Shown here piece by piece: positions 7,086-63,400 of a stretch of DNA of 64,000 bases. The position numbers were made by a program, and so were the translations under genes. How positions within the stretch are numbered: position 1 is the stretch's first letter; each line of letters begins with the position of its first letter. Where the stretch lies: NCBI RefSeq assembly GCF_000027125.1, contig NC_017626.1. The stretch is one strand, 5' to 3'. This stretch comes from Escherichia coli 042. Lineage in GTDB: Bacteria; Pseudomonadota; Gammaproteobacteria; Enterobacterales; Enterobacteriaceae. Below the pieces are notes generated by a model. The model had not been told where the DNA came from, searched no databases, and was given only the letters and a program-made list of their open reading frames with translations.

Positions 7086-8342
7086 TCACTGAAAAGGCCA
7101 TGAGCTGGAGGAAAACGATCTGTCCAGAAAGTCTATCGGTTCCTCTCTTATCGCCTCATTGTAATAATCGTTATTACAGTAAGTATTGTTTATTTCATCT
7201 AATGTCATATTTTTAATTTTTATATTCATCTGATTTACAACTTCTTCTGTTTTATAAGTGTGTATATTATATGGGGTATATGCTTCTTTAATAGTATAGT
7301 GAAACAATTCGTTATCCACATCTACTCCGTCAGAGTGAACTTCAAATGCACCAGGCGAAAGAATTGCCAGGCCAGTATTAAGCTTAAGTGCTGGGGAAAA
7401 TAAATTAAATAACATGAGCTGGATAGTAGGGCAATTGTTCTTCCCAGAAACATTTAAAAAATTTAAGTTTTTGCTCTGTTTTATTATGGGGAATAAAGTT
7501 CCAATATCGGACGTATTCTTAGTGTCAATGCGGGTTATTTTATTATTGTCCAGCCTTAAACTTTTGATAGATGAAAGATAAGTCAGGAAATGAAGGTTTA
7601 TTTTTTCCAACTGATTGTTCGCAGCGTTTAATGTCTGAATATTGCAGAAGTTGCTAAAGAATATTTTAATTTCAGAAAGCAAGTTGTTGTTGATAAGTAA
7701 CGTATTCAAGTTGGGAAAAAAGGTATTATGTAAACTTGTTAGTTTATTATGGGATAGATCCAGAAGTAAGAGTTCATCTTTATTTCCTGCAACAATATCA
7801 GTTAATTGATTGTGGCTGAGATTCAGGTACTGCAGCCTTTCGCAACATTCTAATTGCACAAACTCTAGTTGATTATGTGCCGCACTAAAATAAGTAATTG
7901 ATGAAAGCCTATCTATATCAATATTTCTGAGAGAATTATTATTCATAGATATATGTGTAATGCTTACATTTCTACCTTGAGGAAAATTTATTGACTCAAG
8001 AGCATTACTATTCAGACTAAGGTTGATGAGTCTATCGTAGGTGGTTGCATCAAAATGTTTGAGTTGGTTCTCATCAAGATTGATAGAGGTGAAGTTTTGC
8101 AGTCCTGGTGGTTGAGTAGTTAAATTAAGCCCTGATAAATCAATATTATTCTGTTTCGACAAAAAAGCACAATTTATCCTTTTAGCGGCTTCGTTTCGGC
8201 ATTCCGGACGATGGATTTCACCTGTAAGTATGCGTTCTGCTTTCCATTGATTTAATTCGAGCATCCAGTTAAGTTCATTTTTTTCTGGATGTTGCTGTAT
8301 GGATTGTGGATTTATTTTATTAAATATTGAAGGGAATTTCAT
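7086..8342 (-). CDS. Leucine-rich repeat protein (YopM/IpaH-like N-terminal region plus about 10 LRRs, no recognisable catalytic domain)
   Basis: Track ORF begins at GTG 8381; preferred start is ATG 8340-8342 (MKFPSIFNKI) preceded by GGAG. Tandem ~22-residue LxxLxLxxNxL repeats; very AT-rich coding sequence. Occupies the yddJ/yddK position of K-12. Confidence 0.8.
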   Translation of the reverse strand: MKFPSIFNKINPQSIQQHPEKNELNWMLELNQWKAERILTGEIHRPECRNEAAKRINCAFLSKQNNIDLSGLNLTTQPPGLQNFTSINLDENQLKHFDATTYDRLINLSLNSNALESINFPQGRNVSITHISMNNNSLRNIDIDRLSSITYFSAAHNQLEFVQLECCERLQYLNLSHNQLTDIVAGNKDELLLLDLSHNKLTSLHNTFFPNLNTLLINNNLLSEIKIFFSNFCNIQTLNAANNQLEKINLHFLTYLSSIKSLRLDNNKITRIDTKNTSDIGTLFPIIKQSKNLNFLNVSGKNNCPTIQLMLFNLFSPALKLNTGLAILSPGAFEVHSDGVDVDNELFHYTIKEAYTPYNIHTYKTEEVVNQMNIKIKNMTLDEINNTYCNNDYYNEAIREEPIDFLDRSFSSSSWPFQ

Positions 8343-8403
8343 AACTGCTCCGTAGTAATACTTTCTTTTCTGATTTATCACCCTTGATAAATCAGGATGT
8401 GTT

Positions 8404-9663
8404 TTATAACTCTGTAGAAAAGGATTGGCTTAACCAATTATTGGGTGTTGAACCATAACCTAAGGAAGGTTTATCCTCATTATGAATATAATAACAGACG
8501 GGTGTGCCCGTTGGGTCCTTTAGCCCCGAGTGTGAGGGTAGAGAAGAGGAATTTGACTTATAGTCACCAACCCCGTACATGCGATGCATAGGCAGAATGG
8601 CTTTTAGTTCTGCGTCAGAAAATATTGTTTCTTCTTCTATTAAAGCGTACTCTCTGGAATAATATTTTGATCTATAACGAATAGACATTGAGTCATTGTC
8701 TTTTATATGATTTCCTTCGGAATTCTCGCTTACTTCTACAAGATGTTCATCGCTGGTATCGATATTTGTGATTGCCAGGTTATAAGATAATTCAATGGTC
8801 ACTTCATTAGTGTCATCAATTATATTTCTTACTGCAGTCCAGTACTGCATTTGGGCAAGTGGATCATTGTTGATGCCGTTAACTAATACATGCCAAAGAT
8901 GTTTTGATGATATTAATTGATCAATGTCATCTGTTGGCAATAAATTGTTATTGCTTAAGTTTAAATATTCCAGTTTTGTAGTGGTTTTCGCGTTTAAGTG
9001 TGCAATATGGTTGTCGTTTAAAGTGATTTTTTTCATCCTGGGATGATTGTGTAATATAAGGTCAGTGATCATATTGTGATGGGCACTTAACTCAATCAGA
9101 GATTCTTGCCGGGAGAGATCCAGCGATGCTAGCTTGTTATAATCAAGATTAAGAAATTTCAGTTTATAACTATCAGAAATATTAATTTTTGTCAGGTTGT
9201 TATTTTGCGCTTCCAGGTTAACCAATGAATACTGATTTTTTAAATCCAAATTTTCCAGATTGTTGTGATCAATATAAATATTTTCCAGTTTTGATTCATT
9301 TGGAAAGGTTATCGTTTTAATTTTATTAAAGCTGAGGTTGATATTGACGAGGCTGGCATTGTCAGTAAAGTCAAGACAAGTGAGACAATTTTTTTCCAGA
9401 TTTAACGTGTTAACTGTCGAGGGGATAGGCGGTAACTCACTCAAATCAAGATATGACAAATCAAGAGATGCCATGTTCGAATTGTAAGCTTCTTTAATTC
9501 GCTCTACGGCAATAGCTCTTTCTTCACCATTATTAAGCGACTTATTACCCCATTGTGCCAGTCGTTCACAAAAATTGCTGGAGATGGTTTCTTTGTTAGG
9601 TAATGCGTTATTTAATTGATAACTGGCATTATTTTTTACACAAGCTGTATTAATATTGGTCAT
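8404..9663 (-). CDS. Leucine-rich repeat protein, paralogous architecture to the adjacent LRR gene
   Basis: ORF begins MTNINTACVKNNASYQL (ATG 9661-9663; an upstream GTG at 9669 is also possible). N-terminal ERLAQWGNK...GEERAIAVERIKEA segment followed by LRRs (LDLSELPPIPSTVNTLNLEKNCLTCL...), then a ~130-aa C-terminal region of unknown type. Confidence 0.8.
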   Translation of the reverse strand: MTNINTACVKNNASYQLNNALPNKETISSNFCERLAQWGNKSLNNGEERAIAVERIKEAYNSNMASLDLSYLDLSELPPIPSTVNTLNLEKNCLTCLDFTDNASLVNINLSFNKIKTITFPNESKLENIYIDHNNLENLDLKNQYSLVNLEAQNNNLTKINISDSYKLKFLNLDYNKLASLDLSRQESLIELSAHHNMITDLILHNHPRMKKITLNDNHIAHLNAKTTTKLEYLNLSNNNLLPTDDIDQLISSKHLWHVLVNGINNDPLAQMQYWTAVRNIIDDTNEVTIELSYNLAITNIDTSDEHLVEVSENSEGNHIKDNDSMSIRYRSKYYSREYALIEEETIFSDAELKAILPMHRMYGVGDYKSNSSSLPSHSGLKDPTGTPVCYYIHNEDKPSLGYGSTPNNWLSQSFSTEL

Positions 9664-9790
9664 AATCACTCATCAATAAATATTATAGTAAGATGTCCCC
9701 GGAGGGTATGGAATAATATTAATTGAGGTGAATGACCAGAAATATCAAAAATTGCTCATTTTTACTTAAGGAGTCATACAGCAGCACTTA

Positions 9791-9819
9791 AATCAAAAAC
9801 CAGCCCAGAGAAGGGCTGG
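9791..9819 (-). terminator. Rho-independent terminator downstream of the porin gene
   Basis: Minus-strand RNA: CCAGCCC-UUCUCU-GGGCUGG hairpin followed by UUUUUGAUUU, beginning 14 nt after the porin stop codon. Confidence 0.6.
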
Positions 9820-9832
9820 TCAGGAGAGGATG

Positions 9833-20868: not shown

Positions 20869-21006
20869 TTACTTTTCAGCGGGGCGTTTTCTGCCGGTTG
20901 GGTTATTTACCACGCTGGATTTGTCACCTTCGGTAACTATTTTGCGCTGGTTAGAAATTTTATGGTCCAGTCCAAGAATATGACGTGCCTGACGGTTCGA
21001 TTTCAT
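20869..21006 (-). CDS. sra: Stationary-phase-induced ribosome-associated protein (small protein, below ORF-track cutoff)
   Basis: Hand translation of the minus strand from ATG 21004-21006: [45 protein letters not shown] then stop; GAGGAG RBS. Confidence 0.85.
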
Positions 21007-21107
21007 TTTAACTCCTCAATCCTGTTGCTAGTTTTAAGGACAACATCGCCGTAGCGAAGAAACACGTGCTAAACCCCTAAATTAGGTTGCCGATCAAGCA
21101 TAGCACC

Positions 21108-21323
21108 TTAAAGCGTAGGGTGCTGGCCACTGACCACATAATTGATCGTTTGCTGGTAGATATCACTGAGGATGTCGTTATCAGAAGCTTCCACCCATTT
21201 GGTCAGCTCCATGAGAATGTCATCTTCAGTGACAACACCGTGCTCTGCCCGAAGGCCTTGCTCAATGGCATTAACCAGAGCGGGTTCTGCTGTTGAATTT
21301 TCTGCCTGATAATAAGTAAACAT
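21108..21323 (-). CDS. bdm: Biofilm-dependent modulation protein
   Basis: Start at internal ATG 21321-21323 (MFTYYQAENSTAEPALVNAIEQGL), 71 aa; divergent from osmC. Confidence 0.85.
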   Translation of the reverse strand: MFTYYQAENSTAEPALVNAIEQGLRAEHGVVTEDDILMELTKWVEASDNDILSDIYQQTINYVVSGQHPTL

Positions 21324-32183: not shown

Positions 32184-32507
32184 AATTCACACCCTTATAA
32201 GGCTGGGAAAGCAGACGGAATCAAAACGAAACGCAACGTGCGAGGTCGACTAACTGCACCATATTCTCCTGAAATATGAAGATATACTGAAAACAAATAA
32301 GCGACTTAGGACAGTTTCAATCTACGCTACTGTTCTTCAGAAGAGTATAGCCCATCGTAATTATTTTTCGGTGACAGCGAATATCGTATGTTTTTTCATA
32401 TTCATACATTTTTATTAGGGGATTTATGACTGTTTAACTAAGTGTGGTTAATTGCGTAGTTAATTTGACTTAAGTAAGCATGATTACTAGTGGGATATTT
32501 CAAGAGG

Positions 32508-32541
32508 GTAACAAGCCGGGGGAAAAGCACCGGCTTGTTAC
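32508..32541. other. Perfect 12-bp stem-loop downstream of yddW
   Basis: GTAACAAGCCGG-GGGAAAAGCA-CCGGCTTGTTAC, 18 nt past the yddW stop on the minus strand; no adjacent U-tract. Confidence 0.5.
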
Positions 32542-32558
32542 AAAGTAAGAATGGGAGT

Positions 32559-37199: not shown

Positions 37200-37461
37200 T
37201 GTTATTTATCGTGAGATATTATGCGAATAATGTTTTTTCATTGAAAATCAATACATTATTGAATTATTGGGTGGTAGCAAGGTGTTTTGTGTTGTTATTT
37301 TTATGCACTTTCTACGCCTCCTGAATTATCACGTAAAAATCAGACCTTAAAATATCACTATTAGTACTTGGTTATTATTTTGAACGCATTTATAAAATTA
37401 TTACATAAAAATAGCGAATATTGATAAAATCCCCGCCAACGATGTGTTGACGGGGCTGTTA

Positions 37462-44538: not shown

Positions 44539-44687
44539 GGTATTGCTAATGCCCTGACGCATGCCACGTAAGCCAGAATTTTCGCAAGGGAAGATGATGA
44601 TGACGAAACACCCAACAGGAATTTATGTCGGGTGCTTTGTTAAGGTCATAAGACGGAGGCTAAGACTGGAGCAAAGAAGGAGCGTTA

Positions 44688-45845
44688 TTAATTATTCTCC
44701 ATTTGTTTTGCAACATCCATAATGTGGTAAAGCGGTACTCTGTTCTTGGCTAACTCCACCATGGCGTTCATATAAGGTACCATGGTTGAAAAAAGGATTT
44801 TATAACCTTCGCAAAAATAGGAAACAGTCTCATTGTTTACTTTAGTAATACGATGCTTAGGGCAACCGCCATTGCAGATAGGTTTATATGCACATTGCTG
44901 ACATTTCGCTGAAATCCGTTTTTTTTGCGCTGTCAGTTGTACACTGTTCATCGTTTTAAGTTCAGATTTATTAATGTTTCCAATTTTGTACTGTGGATAG
45001 ACAAAATGGTCGCATTCGTAAATGTCTCCATTACTTTCAACAACCAGATTATCCTTGCAGGACTCCTGGAAAATACAACTGGTATGCCCATTCCCCAAAA
45101 AACGGCTGACAAAACTTTCAAACTGACGGATGAAAATTTCACCCACATCGTTTTTAACCCATTGCATAAAAATGGTCGACATAAACTTGCCATAAGCCGT
45201 AGGAGGCACAGAAAAATCAATGATACGGAATGTGTTCTCACTATGACCACTGAAATCAATATTCGGCGTCCCGGTTTCGAGCAATTCGATAAATTGCATA
45301 TGTTTACTGCCGATAGATTTTAAAAAATGATAAACCTCAAGAGGGTAATGGACATTAACGTTATTAATGACGGTTAACGTATTAAACTCTACTTGATATG
45401 ATTTCAGACGCTCGATGGCTGCTATCACTTTTGCAAAAGTACCGTTACCAGAATTACTGCGTCTGTAACGGTCATGTAGCTCCTGGGGTCCATCGATCGA
45501 GATACCAACCAGAAACTCATGTTCTTTGAGAAAGGCACACCATTCATTATTCAATAAAATGCCATTCGTTTGTAATGCATTAAAAATACGTTTTTGGCCT
45601 GCATAGCGTTGTTGATAGTGAATAACTTTACGGAAAAAATCCAGACCAGCCAGAGTGGGTTCACCGCCTTGCCACGTAAAATAGACCTGATTGCCAGACG
45701 CTGCGATATATTGTTTGATGAACTCTTTCAGAGTGCTGTCATCCATCCATTTTTCATGAGTAAACTGCGACTCTTTTTCAAGGTAAAAACAGTAATCACA
45801 TTTGAGATTACATTGAAAACTGGAGGGCTTGGCTGTAACGTGCAT
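44688..45845 (-). CDS. ydeM: Radical-SAM anaerobic sulfatase-maturating enzyme homologue
   Basis: Start at ATG 45843-45845 ([21 protein letters not shown]); CxxxCxxC radical-SAM cluster plus C-terminal Cys-rich SPASM-like region. Confidence 0.9.
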
Positions 45846-47579: not shown

Positions 47580-47981
47580 AAATGTTCCTCTTCTTATTGT
47601 ACTTAATTCCAAAGTAATTTTACGAAGAGAAATAAGTGAATGTAAGTGAAGTTAGTCACATAAAGAGATAGCAGATTTAGCTAAAAAAAGGGAAATAACA
47701 GTCCATGAAGCGTTGACATTACTTTCTATTCTACTAAGTAATTTCTCGACGATAAACAACTAATCTATTGATATTTAATAAATTATTGTATTTTACTGAC
47801 AAAATGCCGAATTGAGATCATAAATAATCATGCAACAGGTTATGCAAATGCATAAATATGTGATGAATGTCACTTATTTATTTCAATAAATATATCGCCT
47901 AAAAACAACGCGGGGCAGGGAATGGCTGCCCCATTTTAATTTTTACGTAGGGTGCGTGGTTGACTACTCGTTAGCAAATAA

Positions 47982-57327: not shown

Positions 57328-57678
57328 TCTCCATGTGTTAAGAGGATAAGCGGGAAAACCGTTACATCAGACAATCGATAAATGTTGCTAATACATTGGC
57401 GAGTCGCCGGGTTTCCAGACTTAATGCGTTTGTAATAAATGTTGGTTCTCTTTTAATAGGAAAACCTTGCTACAAAGTAAATATTTTAAATAACAGTAAG
57501 TTTAACTACTGTTGTTTATTGATCGTTTAGATATTATGTGATTTTTCATAGTGCTCCAAATACAAACCATTCCTCATTAATAATGAGATTCACATTGGCG
57601 AATTGCTCGGGTGTGCGTAGCCATGCCACACACACCCTGTTTCAATTTCAGATGACGTATAGCCACCTTAAGATTGAA

Positions 57679-58242: not shown

Positions 58243-58675
58243 AATTCTCCAAAATTTATATTTAAGTAGCTGAATAAAGAGAGTTAACAATTAAGTCATT
58301 CTGTTATTGCTTATAAAACAAGAATCATTCTTGATGGGATATTGCCCTGAAAATATAGTTTCCAGGGTTATTACATTTCACGAAGAACGATAATATCTTT
58401 AAATTACAAGGACACCTAATCACAACAAGTTTATTGCAGCACTTGTTGTAGAGAGTAGTTGCAAAAACATTTTATGTCGCTAAATAACATGACGATTTCA
58501 TTATGCATGATGTTTATAAACAGCGACTAAACAGAATATTATTGCGAACAAGGGAAGTGTCAGGAAAGGTCAAGAGCGACTAATGGTTTATATGGCTATA
58601 AATTATTAGCTATGGTTAATGTTTGCATGGTGAAACTAACGCCGAAATGCTCTAACCAGATAAGTGCAGGGTTTA

Positions 58676-58930: not shown

Positions 58931-59211
58931 GCGGTTTGCCAGCCTGACTCTTCAACGCAGGGAAGATGCGGCAAACGGCAAACCTGCATACCAGCCAGCC
59001 TATATCCGGTATGCACAGGCCAATTATGAAAGAGGAGAGGCTTTATGTTCTGGAACCCTGAAGTAATAACGACGACCGGAAAATCGCTTCGCATCACTCA
59101 AATTCCATTTAACATAATATACATTATGCGCACTAATATAAACCAAGGGAGAATCCAGTCGTTGGCGGTCATGATTGTCCTGCTCATTAACAACGACCAA
59201 AACCCCATATC

Positions 59212-60478
59212 TTACTTAATACCGTATTCTCGGCTTAACCGGCCGTGCAACCTCAACACATTGGTTTCAACTGCCGTCACCACGTTCTCCGGAAAATCTG
59301 TCGGTAATGAAGTCTTCACGTTATCCAGTGCTGCCGGAATCATTCTGGCAAAGTCACTCAGGATTTCATGCATCTGCACTTCCGGAAATTTCAGCAACTT
59401 TGCTGTCGCCAGAAAATGTCGCGGATAAATTTTATCGATTGCCGTTTTTTTGCCTTTGGATGCGTTAAGCCCCATTGCCAGTTTGAGATCGCTGATGTGT
59501 ATTCCTGCGCCACCCAATACCGGAAATGCTGAAATGATGTCGTAAAATGGCGTGAGTCGATAACTGCCGCCAGCCTGAATAAATACGGAGAAGTTTTTTG
59601 CATGGCCATCCGTTGCGCCAATCAACCACTGGAACACCTGAAACTTCATAAAATCATAGCGATCTTTCAGCGCCTCGCTGGACCCCATCAAAAAAGCCAT
59701 GATCCGCGCGATGCCTGGGCCTCCATCTGATTCATATTTCACCGATGAAGTTAAACCGAATGTCTGACACATATCCTCCTGTGGCAAGCGAAGTAAAACC
59801 GTTCGCTCAGCATTCCAACGCCTGTCAAAACGTTCGACCGCTAACGCGCGCACATTCCCCGCTTTAATGATTTCTGCGTCCGGCACATTCAACCCAAGTT
59901 CTTTCGCCAGCAGCAGACAGTAATACTCATTATCAACGCTTTGGCTGAGATCGAGCGTCGCATTGGGCTGCCTGATTTCGCCAATCGGTAATTTAATGAT
60001 GTGCGTCGTCGGCGTTATTCCTTTCGGAATGCACCAGTCATTGCCTATTCTGAGCAGCGCTGTCTTCTCCTGCGCGCCAGCAACCGAGATGCGAAAGTCA
60101 TTTTCTTCTCTAATCATGCCCAGAGGGATATCTGCTTTATAAGCCGTTAATACTTCTTCAAGTCTGGCTTCAGTAAGCTTTTCCCATGCCATTATCGGAT
60201 GCGTTACGGTTTCGTCTTCGGGTATTAACGTCACGGCACCAACGCTGTCTCGCCCTATTTCTGACAATAAATCAAACGGTTGTCTGGATTTGGCATGATA
60301 ACGTTTAACGATCCGGTCACGTACAATCGGGCTATCGGGTAACAGATTATCGAAGAAGTTAAATACGGCATCAGAGGTGATATTCCCCCTCTGCAATGGC
60401 AGCGAAAGTGACAACGGTCTGGCATAACGGCTGGCTAACCACTCCGGTGCATACTTAAAGGTGTGCGCGCCGTTGGCT
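59212..60478 (-). pseudogene. hipA: hipA toxin kinase remnant, 5'-truncated, no hipB
   Basis: HipA-type sequence from about residue 19 (LANGAHTFKYAPEWLASRYARPLSLSLPLQRGNITSDAVFNFF...) to the stop at 59212. An in-frame TGA lies three codons upstream of the first homologous codon. No hipB, promoter or RBS upstream. Confidence 0.75.
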
Positions 60479-63400
60479 AGCGAGAATCATAGTCGTCAGC
60501 AGAACGGTTATCGGAACTGACGCTGTTATCAAACCAGTTATACAGCGCCCAGCTGTCAACATAAGCGCCGGTCTTATTCGCATCGTTCTGATACCAGGTC
60601 GCGTACAGTCCTGCGCTGTAACCGCTGATGCGCCCATCCGATTTATAACCCACACGATTACTCTGAGTATTACTGTGCTGATTGGCGTAGCCTGCCATCA
60701 CGCCAAGATGCCAGCGATCCTGCGCGTTGCTACTCCACTGCGCCAAATCGCCTCCTAGCTGCAATACATAGCGGTTAGCCTGAGTATTTAGCTGGCCGTC
60801 ACCGGTCCTGAAACGTTCGTGCCCCCCGACATGACGCATCCACATACTGCTTGCCGAACCCTGAGAATGCAGTGAATCTGTATACTGCGGCTCACCCAGA
60901 CGGTCGTGTAAGCGATGGCTAAACAGCGAGTTGGCTGCGGCAATGTTGCTGATATAGCTTCCGGCCTCCGGGCGATAAACTGATGGGCCTTCCGGATCCA
61001 CAACAGGGGGATTATTGATGGGATCGGGTGTATCCGGTGGCGTTACGCCTTCCCATTTACTGGTCAGATACCAGTTTTTCTCGTCATTCCCCTTCCCTTT
61101 AGCCAGCGTGTAGACGTAAGCCCCAGCTTCGACAGTTCCGGTGGTCAGCGCGAAGTTACCTGCAGAATTACCGCCAACCTCAATGAGTTCAATACCGTTG
61201 ACCGTTTGTGCACCGACGCCGCCAATGTTATCAACCCGAACGCGAGTGTTCCCTTGGGTATCGCCTTTCACGTTCATCTTATCGGTGGGCGAATTATCGC
61301 CGCCCAGCGTCGCGTTGAACGTCATCAGGCCATTGTTTCCGTTATAGTTACCGTTAACGGTCAGTACATTCCCCGGTTTCCCCCCTTCGCTGTTCATTTG
61401 AACCGTGCCACCATTCTCCAGGTTACCGCCGACAGTGGTTTTAGCGACACGCAGTGTCCCCCCTGGCATAACGTTCACATCACCTGCAGTGGTGACATTT
61501 CCCGACATCACACCGCTGTTATGGATATTAATGTGCTGACTTGCCATATTAATGGCAGAGTCGGAACCGAAAGCAATTTCACCACCCACGATATCCGTCG
61601 TACCCTGATACGCCGCGGAATCGTTGTTAAGAGTCAGGATCCCGGTACCCAGTTTTGTCACATCACCGCTACCGCTGATACTGTGCGTCATCGCCCAGCT
61701 ACGCTCAGTGGAGATGGTGAGCAGGCCATTATTGATAACGGAAGCATCACCCAGGTTTTTCTGCTCGTTGACGCTGAGCGCGCTGCCTGTATCAATGTTG
61801 AATTGCCCCACAAAGCGGCTATTATCGCCATCCAGCTCTACATCTGTCCTGGCGGTTGCGCTCACGATACCCTTCCCGCTTATGCTATTACGCAGTTCTC
61901 CAGTCACGTTTTTTAGCGTTAACAGACCGTCATTGGCAATATTTCCTCTGCCTAACCCCTGCGTATTATCGAGGCTGACTTCCGCATTTGGGCTAATGCT
62001 GGTTAACGCATTGTAGCGTGCATTAAGCCCCTCGATAGCCAGTGTTCCCCCTGTAACATTCAGGTTTCCGCCACCTGTCAGTTCACCCTGACTGATCCCA
62101 CCTTTATTTACCGTGAGCGCCCCCTCTTTGAACAAAACAGTCGAACCCATCTGCCCGGTGAATGTCTCTACCGTCTGCGTCGATCCATTAAGATCGACGA
62201 TGGCCGCGTTGCTGATGTTCAGTTCCCGGGTGTTGCCAAGTGCACCATCCGCATCGGTACGTAATGTCCCCATCTGAACGTAGGTTGCCCCCTGATAGTC
62301 GTTCTGACCGTTGGAAAGCGAAACCTGTCGTACCGTATTGATTGCCAGATCCCCTTCACCACCGATTTTTGCCGACATATCGGCTGTTGCGCCATAGGCT
62401 CCGCCATGTTCGGCTAACGTCAGCTTTTGCCCACCATGGATGTTCAGCGCTTTCAGCCCATAGTTAACGTACAAACCATCACCTGGTGCGGTCGTGAGGC
62501 GGAATCCATAATCACCCTCGGCGACCACTGTTCCGTTTTGTGCAATGTGTAACTTTTTGTCCGCTTCCACCGCGTCGCCCTGTAAATCACGTAACGTTAA
62601 TGAGCCACCCGATCCAATAACCGTTTGCGCCTTCACCAGTTGAACGCCGACATGGCTATCATCGTGTTCCAGCAAATTGAGCGTCGTCAGAGGGTTATTC
62701 GCCATGGGATCATTCCACGGTTTAGGCACGTCGATAAGCACGTCGCCCATCCCGTTTACCTGATAGTTACGGCCTTTCCAGGTGTAGTCACCCGTGCCGA
62801 CAACCAGCGTATCGACGCTGATATATCCCTCCGCAAGCGTCGCAGCAGGTATATCCGTATCGAAAGTGAGCGTACCGCCATTCATGGCTAGTCCACCAAT
62901 GGATTGCTCTCCCACTTTTACCGATGTGGTATTTTCACTGTCAGACTGAAGCATCGCGTGAGTAAGCGCAGCGGTGTTGTCGCGTTCCAGTGTGAAGGTA
63001 CTGTCTTTCAGTTGGGCAACACCGGCGAATTCAGTTCCTGTTGCATGGGTAAAGCCAAACATTTTGTCGGAGGATGACAGCTGCACTCGCATCAAGCCAT
63101 CGCCTTTGAGCGCATTGGTCAGCGTGTAATCTCCTGCACTGTTCGTTGATGCGAGAATGTCGAGCGTACCGGGGCTTGCAATGGTTACTTCACTCGAACC
63201 CATGCCTGTTACCCCATCTGCCGTATGTGACGCAATAGTCAGGAGGCCGTCATTGACCAGCGTTTTACCACTATAAGTATTCCCTGCATTGAACACCGTA
63301 TGGCCTGCATCATGCATCACTTTTCCGTCTTTATCGTCACCCGTAATCAGCATATCGACCTGGTAGCCGGCATCACTGTTATTAGTATGATTAAAGACAA

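Follow-up and report, generated by a model that had tools for sequence, protein, structure and literature searches.

A 45-codon open reading frame hidden below a 60-residue listing floor in Escherichia coli 042 corresponds to the known gene sra

Does a 45-codon open reading frame (ORF) in the gap between maeA and bdm encode a protein, which protein would that be, and do neighbouring gaps conceal others like it? The question arises in a 64,000-nucleotide stretch of the Escherichia coli 042 chromosome (the window, here meaning everything that was analyzed), where an initial annotation made from the letters alone had placed the small gene sra at 20869-21006 behind a strong GAGGAG ribosome-binding site. 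The gene itself has been on record since 2001, and practically every E. coli genome has it annotated; a further older name of its product is protein D.

Signals and identity of sra

A listing of ORFs returned a 45-codon frame at exactly this position. The initial annotation had given no strand; the gene lies on the minus strand, and its translation there matches the 45-residue peptide proposed earlier letter for letter. Taking the plus-strand frame across 20869-21006 as sra was rejected, as its translation is unrelated. The locus comprises the following features:

20869..21006, minus strand: sra coding sequence (ORF listing, Pfam, NCBIfam, RefSeq coding sequence in strain 118UI, identity to K-12 b1480)
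21012..21017, minus strand: Shine-Dalgarno (SD) sequence GAGGAG of sra (read from the sequence)
20802..20839, minus strand: intrinsic terminator of sra (terminator scan)
21007..21107, minus strand: bdm-sra spacer, 101 nt, 99% identical to K-12, holding sra's own promoter according to the literature
21108..21323, minus strand: bdm, 71 aa, upstream of sra and co-transcribed with it (RefSeq annotation; Pfam PF10684 BDM, 175 bits)
20858..20983, plus strand: antisense ORF in sra, 41 aa from an ATG, with GAGGA 3 nt upstream

The sense codons of sra run from an ATG (complement of 21004-21006) to a TAA stop (complement of 20869-20871). The GAGGAG motif, correctly read in the initial annotation, is separated from the ATG by a 5-nt spacer (TTAAA), and our scan scored it as AGGAG with a spacer of 5. 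Beginning 29 nt past the stop is the stem of the terminator (hairpin at 20839..20812), which has 12 bp (five of them G-C pairs), a 4-nt loop and a T-rich tail. With 101 nt between it and bdm, sra forms a stand-alone small cistron downstream of bdm and upstream of maeA; the three genes share a strand, and osmC diverges from bdm (annotations of 118UI and K-12). A sigma-70 consensus scan of the minus strand of the bdm-sra spacer found no promoter match, which might be expected if the sra promoter is RpoS-dependent, as predicted.

Short ORFs are common in such DNA, with 51 of at least 20 aa overlapping the 3-kb surroundings of sra, and the frame could in principle be an untranslated product of chance in an intergenic spacer. 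Indeed, about 6% of 300 dinucleotide shuffles of the sra gap contained an ATG ORF of 10-59 codons preceded by an SD match of at least 5 nt, so the start and SD signals are by themselves suggestive, not decisive. The protein family models, however, leave chance almost no room. Against Pfam PF08136 (SRA_like, 'Ribosome hibernation factor SRA') the translation reaches 108.2 bits (E = 2.6e-31, cut-off 25), with residues 1-44 aligned to profile positions 1-46 of 46, and against the NCBIfam equivalog NF007473 it reaches 74.5 bits (cut-off 35), both far over the curated thresholds. Further arguments against a chance frame are the strong SD at ideal spacing, the dedicated terminator, the synonymous nature of the sole coding difference from K-12, and the repeated detection of the identical protein on ribosomes (PMC9959377; PMC10502375; PMC6904343; bioRxiv 10.1101/2020.09.04.282723). 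A chance origin is already refuted, and the probability we attach to it is negligible.

Comparison with other genomes identifies the gene. K-12 Sra (b1480, NP_415997.1) has the same amino-acid sequence as the window protein; at the DNA level the two loci differ by the one synonymous base and by a single exchange in the 101-nt spacer upstream, which are functionally unremarkable. Gene order in K-12 MG1655 (maeA-sra-bdm-osmC) is that of the window, and sra length, SD and terminator context are alike. RefSeq places the sra coding sequence at 20869..21006 on the minus strand in strain 118UI, which is colinear with window positions 1-32000 (zero indels, 116 substitutions). Beyond 32000 this comparison contains 10 gap positions and the match stops at 59113, and coordinates of features in the second half were taken from the window sequence and not from 118UI. 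Of 5426 complete E. coli genomes, 5412 contain a 751-bp stretch from the end of maeA through sra to bdm (at least 80% covered in 5394), and sra is annotated beneath the match among the genome records listed.

By count, the peptide is strongly basic, with 6 Lys and 5 Arg against 2 Asp and 2 Glu in 45 aa. The marks of the SRA family that a sequence can show (a match to the profile, small size, basic charge and synteny) are thus all present, and the window protein is the type member of the family and no variant. Two family models above their cut-offs, identity to the K-12 protein, the RefSeq coordinates and the shared neighbourhood together leave no reasonable doubt that this ORF is sra. The assignment made in the initial annotation, a stationary-phase ribosome-associated protein, is therefore correct; it is also already known, and ordinary.

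The antisense ORF at 20858..20983 could be a real gene, either in place of sra or in addition to it. It passes the same filter (ATG plus an SD of at least 5 nt) that recovers sra and a second small gene, yddY, and its GAGGA motif also lies 9 nt before a second in-frame ATG two codons further in. But about 6% of shuffled gaps pass this filter by chance, and the ORF has no Pfam match, is unannotated in K-12 and 118UI, and has no promoter-like site upstream in a scan of the plus strand. Its transcription would proceed head-on towards the sra terminator, and a hydrophobic, low-complexity peptide like the one it encodes would be expected from the reverse frame of a Lys/Arg-rich gene. We consider an antisense gene highly improbable; most likely the ORF is a side effect of the sequence of sra.

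The Sra protein and its proposed role

Sra was first named S22 or RpsV, and its control by RpoS and ppGpp is predicted (PMC10502375; PMC6904343). It is a basic 45-aa protein that binds the 30S subunit (PMC10502375; bioRxiv 10.1101/2020.09.04.282723), and a pI of 11.04 is listed for the K-12 protein (PMC6904343). Its amount goes up in stationary phase and in persisters (PMC10502375; PMC6904343), with copies per cell rising from about 640 in growth to 5851 in stationary phase (PMC11102965). Two promoters, its own and that of bdm, drive the gene, which CsrA represses indirectly during exponential growth (PMC10746276). Direct binding of CsrA at two GGA motifs in the sra leader was considered and rejected, leader fusions being without CsrA regulation (PMC10746276).

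Could Sra be a true structural ribosomal protein (S22), and neither a regulatory nor a hibernation factor? Several published observations speak against this. Sra is dispensable and sub-stoichiometric on ribosomes (PMC10502375), its amount depends on growth phase (PMC10502375; PMC11102965), and it disappears from both ribosomes and proteome in about 6 days or less, keeping pace with RMF (PMC9959377). A preprint argues that sra was born de novo within the Enterobacteriaceae, to which it is restricted, and that it evolves fast (bioRxiv 10.1101/2025.11.04.686544). In addition, no deposited ribosome structure contains Sra: a sequence search of the PDB (2026 copy) found no chain at E <= 0.01 or E <= 10. 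We regard a structural role as quite unlikely. The absence of Sra from PDB chains by sequence is an observation in its own right, although the protein is described as tightly 30S-bound.

E. coli has another short ribosome binder of this type in RMF (ribosome modulation factor), which resembles Sra in being a small, basic, stationary-phase-induced binder of the small subunit with the same kinetics of loss from ribosomes (PMC9959377). RMF differs in belonging to an unrelated family, in having a solved binding site and in driving 100S dimer formation, whereas Sra leaves the distribution of ribosome states unaltered (PMC10746276) and matches no PDB chain. Deletion of sra lowers ampicillin tolerance, above all under HipA expression (bioRxiv 10.1101/2020.09.04.282723).

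From binding to the 30S subunit in stationary phase we infer a hibernation factor that may silence or protect idle ribosomes. Expression of sra is low in growing cells, through indirect CsrA repression, and rises on entry into stationary phase; in such a scheme, Sra would then act as an accessory ribosome-hibernation factor that keeps idle 30S or 70S particles silent or protected, possibly aiding RMF, and could in this way help non-growing cells to survive and to tolerate antibiotics. Taken as a whole, we are nearly certain of the reading of this locus as E. coli sra, encoding a basic stationary-phase ribosome-associated protein with a putative role in hibernation.

Differences between the window and reference strains

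Comparison of the window with reference strains brought up several observations outside the sra locus, which involve these features:

59212..60414, minus strand: hipA remnant ORF, 400 aa from a TTG
12887-12945, plus strand: SECIS element in fdnG (Rfam RF01989, 84.3 bits, cut-off 63)
17407-17685, minus strand: gene for a RelE/ParE-family toxin (from annotation), directly upstream of yddM with a one-base overlap
9833..10933, minus strand: porin gene annotated 'OmpC', intact in the window

Past about 59,113, where it departs from 118UI, the window resembles the hipA-autotransporter region of K-12 and strain GF43. About 1.0 kb of the K-12 and GF43 sequence is missing at 60479/60480 (context 59212-63992). 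The missing part takes in hipB entirely, together with the hipBA promoter region, about 55 nt at the start of hipA, and the 3' end of an autotransporter gene; the truncated autotransporter belongs to the ECSE_1600 family (yneO). Among 5426 complete E. coli genomes, not one has the two sides of the 60479/60480 junction contiguous. The junction leaves the toxin gene hipA without antitoxin and promoter, an unusual arrangement. Published work ties HipA-induced tolerance to Sra (bioRxiv 10.1101/2020.09.04.282723).

A second toxin-antitoxin locus also departs from K-12. There, yddM, encoding a HigA-family antitoxin, stands alone without a toxin gene, and K-12 lacks a counterpart to some 420 bp of the window (17413-17833). 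In the adjoining fdnI-yddM gap, positions 16969-17049 gave sub-threshold Rfam matches on both strands to naRNA4 (31.5 bits) and ES036 (30.1 bits); this may be a REP-type palindromic repeat. The narU-yddG region (7086-10933) is likewise unlike K-12, having a gene for a full-length leucine-rich-repeat protein and the intact porin gene where K-12 has yddJ (a pseudogene), yddK and a short yddL; parts of the window stretch are without a K-12 match. In fdnG, the in-frame TGA would split the gene in a plain ORF track.

Small genes and RNAs in the intergenic gaps

The initial annotation had further proposed that genes of fewer than 60 aa are invisible in its ORF track, in agreement with the default 60-aa floor of the listing program, and that four gaps (32184-32558, 47580-47981, 57328-57678 and 58243-58675) may hide small proteins or sRNAs. 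We scanned these four and, for reference, every gap of 100 bp or more in the window (25 in all) for ORFs that start at an ATG, span 10-59 codons and follow an SD match of 5 nt or more, a filter that about 4-7% of shuffled gaps pass. The elements of interest were:

32221..32262, minus strand: yddY, 13 codons, just upstream of dosC, with K-12 b4746 at the homologous place
44600..44722, plus strand: yneP, 40 codons, in the yddA-ydeM gap (K-12 b4747; Pfam PF23696)
37264..37308, minus strand: ORF of 14 codons from a GTG (VHKNNNTKHLATTQ), with a perfect AGGAGG at 8 nt
47911-47933: hairpin directly after the ydeO stop codon
32508-32541: hairpin directly after the digH stop codon
57487-57518 and 57609-57637: hairpins after a fimbrial major-subunit gene

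In the maeA-bdm gap the filter picked out sra and the antisense ORF inside it, and in the gap 32184-32558 it picked out yddY, so one of the four suspected gaps does hold a small gene. The other three did not bear out the suspicion: no ATG ORF with a strong SD was found in 47580-47981, 58243-58675 or 57328-57678, the last containing two weak candidates (12 aa from a TTG, and 15 aa with a 4-nt SD). The start of yddY is preceded by AGGAG at 3 nt; its peptide is identical to that of K-12, whose annotation has the gene between dosC and digH, and the two base differences from K-12 are both synonymous. Low Mg2+ induces yddY, an effect that depends on PhoQP (PMC11429745).

The filter is not exhaustive, as it missed yneP, which has no strong SD and lies in a gap that the initial annotation had not flagged. 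Its identity comes from the K-12 annotation, an alignment and the Pfam model (PF23696 YneP, 101.5 bits, cut-off 27). The 3' end of yneP overlaps the start of ydeM on the opposite strand, and an upstream in-frame ATG would yield 53 aa. Compared with K-12 YneP, 5 of 40 residues differ, the codon changes being 5 non-synonymous and 2 synonymous, suggesting that this validated small protein may be under weak constraint. Both YddY and YneP, known in K-12 from small-ORF tagging (VanOrsdel et al. 2018), occur at homologous places in the window, and both were detected in K-12 by a chromosomal epitope tag (PMC6001520). Like Sra, they are shorter than 60 aa and hidden by the listing floor. The GTG ORF at 37264..37308, upstream of gadB in the gadB-pqqL gap, is unannotated in K-12 and is probably a chance occurrence.

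Searches for RNAs gave a uniform result: neither Rfam nor terminator scans revealed an sRNA in any gap. An Rfam scan of the whole window at gathering thresholds returned nothing but the fdnG SECIS, while permissive scans of each gap reached only 18.7-24.5 bits against thresholds of 48-100 bits, the matches being to unrelated families (Listeria rli61, plastid psbJ, Streptococcus sRNA 34 and microRNAs). A permissive scan of the whole window likewise stayed far below threshold, with matches to unrelated families. The K-12 annotation of the homologous region lists no RNA genes. None of the hairpins in the flagged gaps is an orphan terminator of the stand-alone, sRNA-like kind; the two at 57487-57518 and 57609-57637 are probably attenuator-type structures of the sort that commonly follow a gene for a fimbrial major subunit. 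Identity to reference strains is lower in the flagged gaps (93.4-96.5%) than in flanking genes (97.6-98.2%), and these values give no sign of an unusually conserved element within them. There is a small chance that an unannotated gene or sRNA still hides in 47580-47981, 57328-57678 or 58243-58675, or that the ORF at 20858..20983 (plus) or 37264..37308 (minus) is one, since a gene without a strong SD could escape filters of this kind as yneP did.

For the biology of E. coli, sra itself brings very little news, and the value of the finding is methodological. A floor of 60 aa on listed ORFs conceals at least three real genes in a 64-kb window, namely sra (45 aa), yneP (40 aa) and yddY (13 aa), and a filter as simple as an ATG with a strong SD finds sra and yddY again while letting through few false positives.
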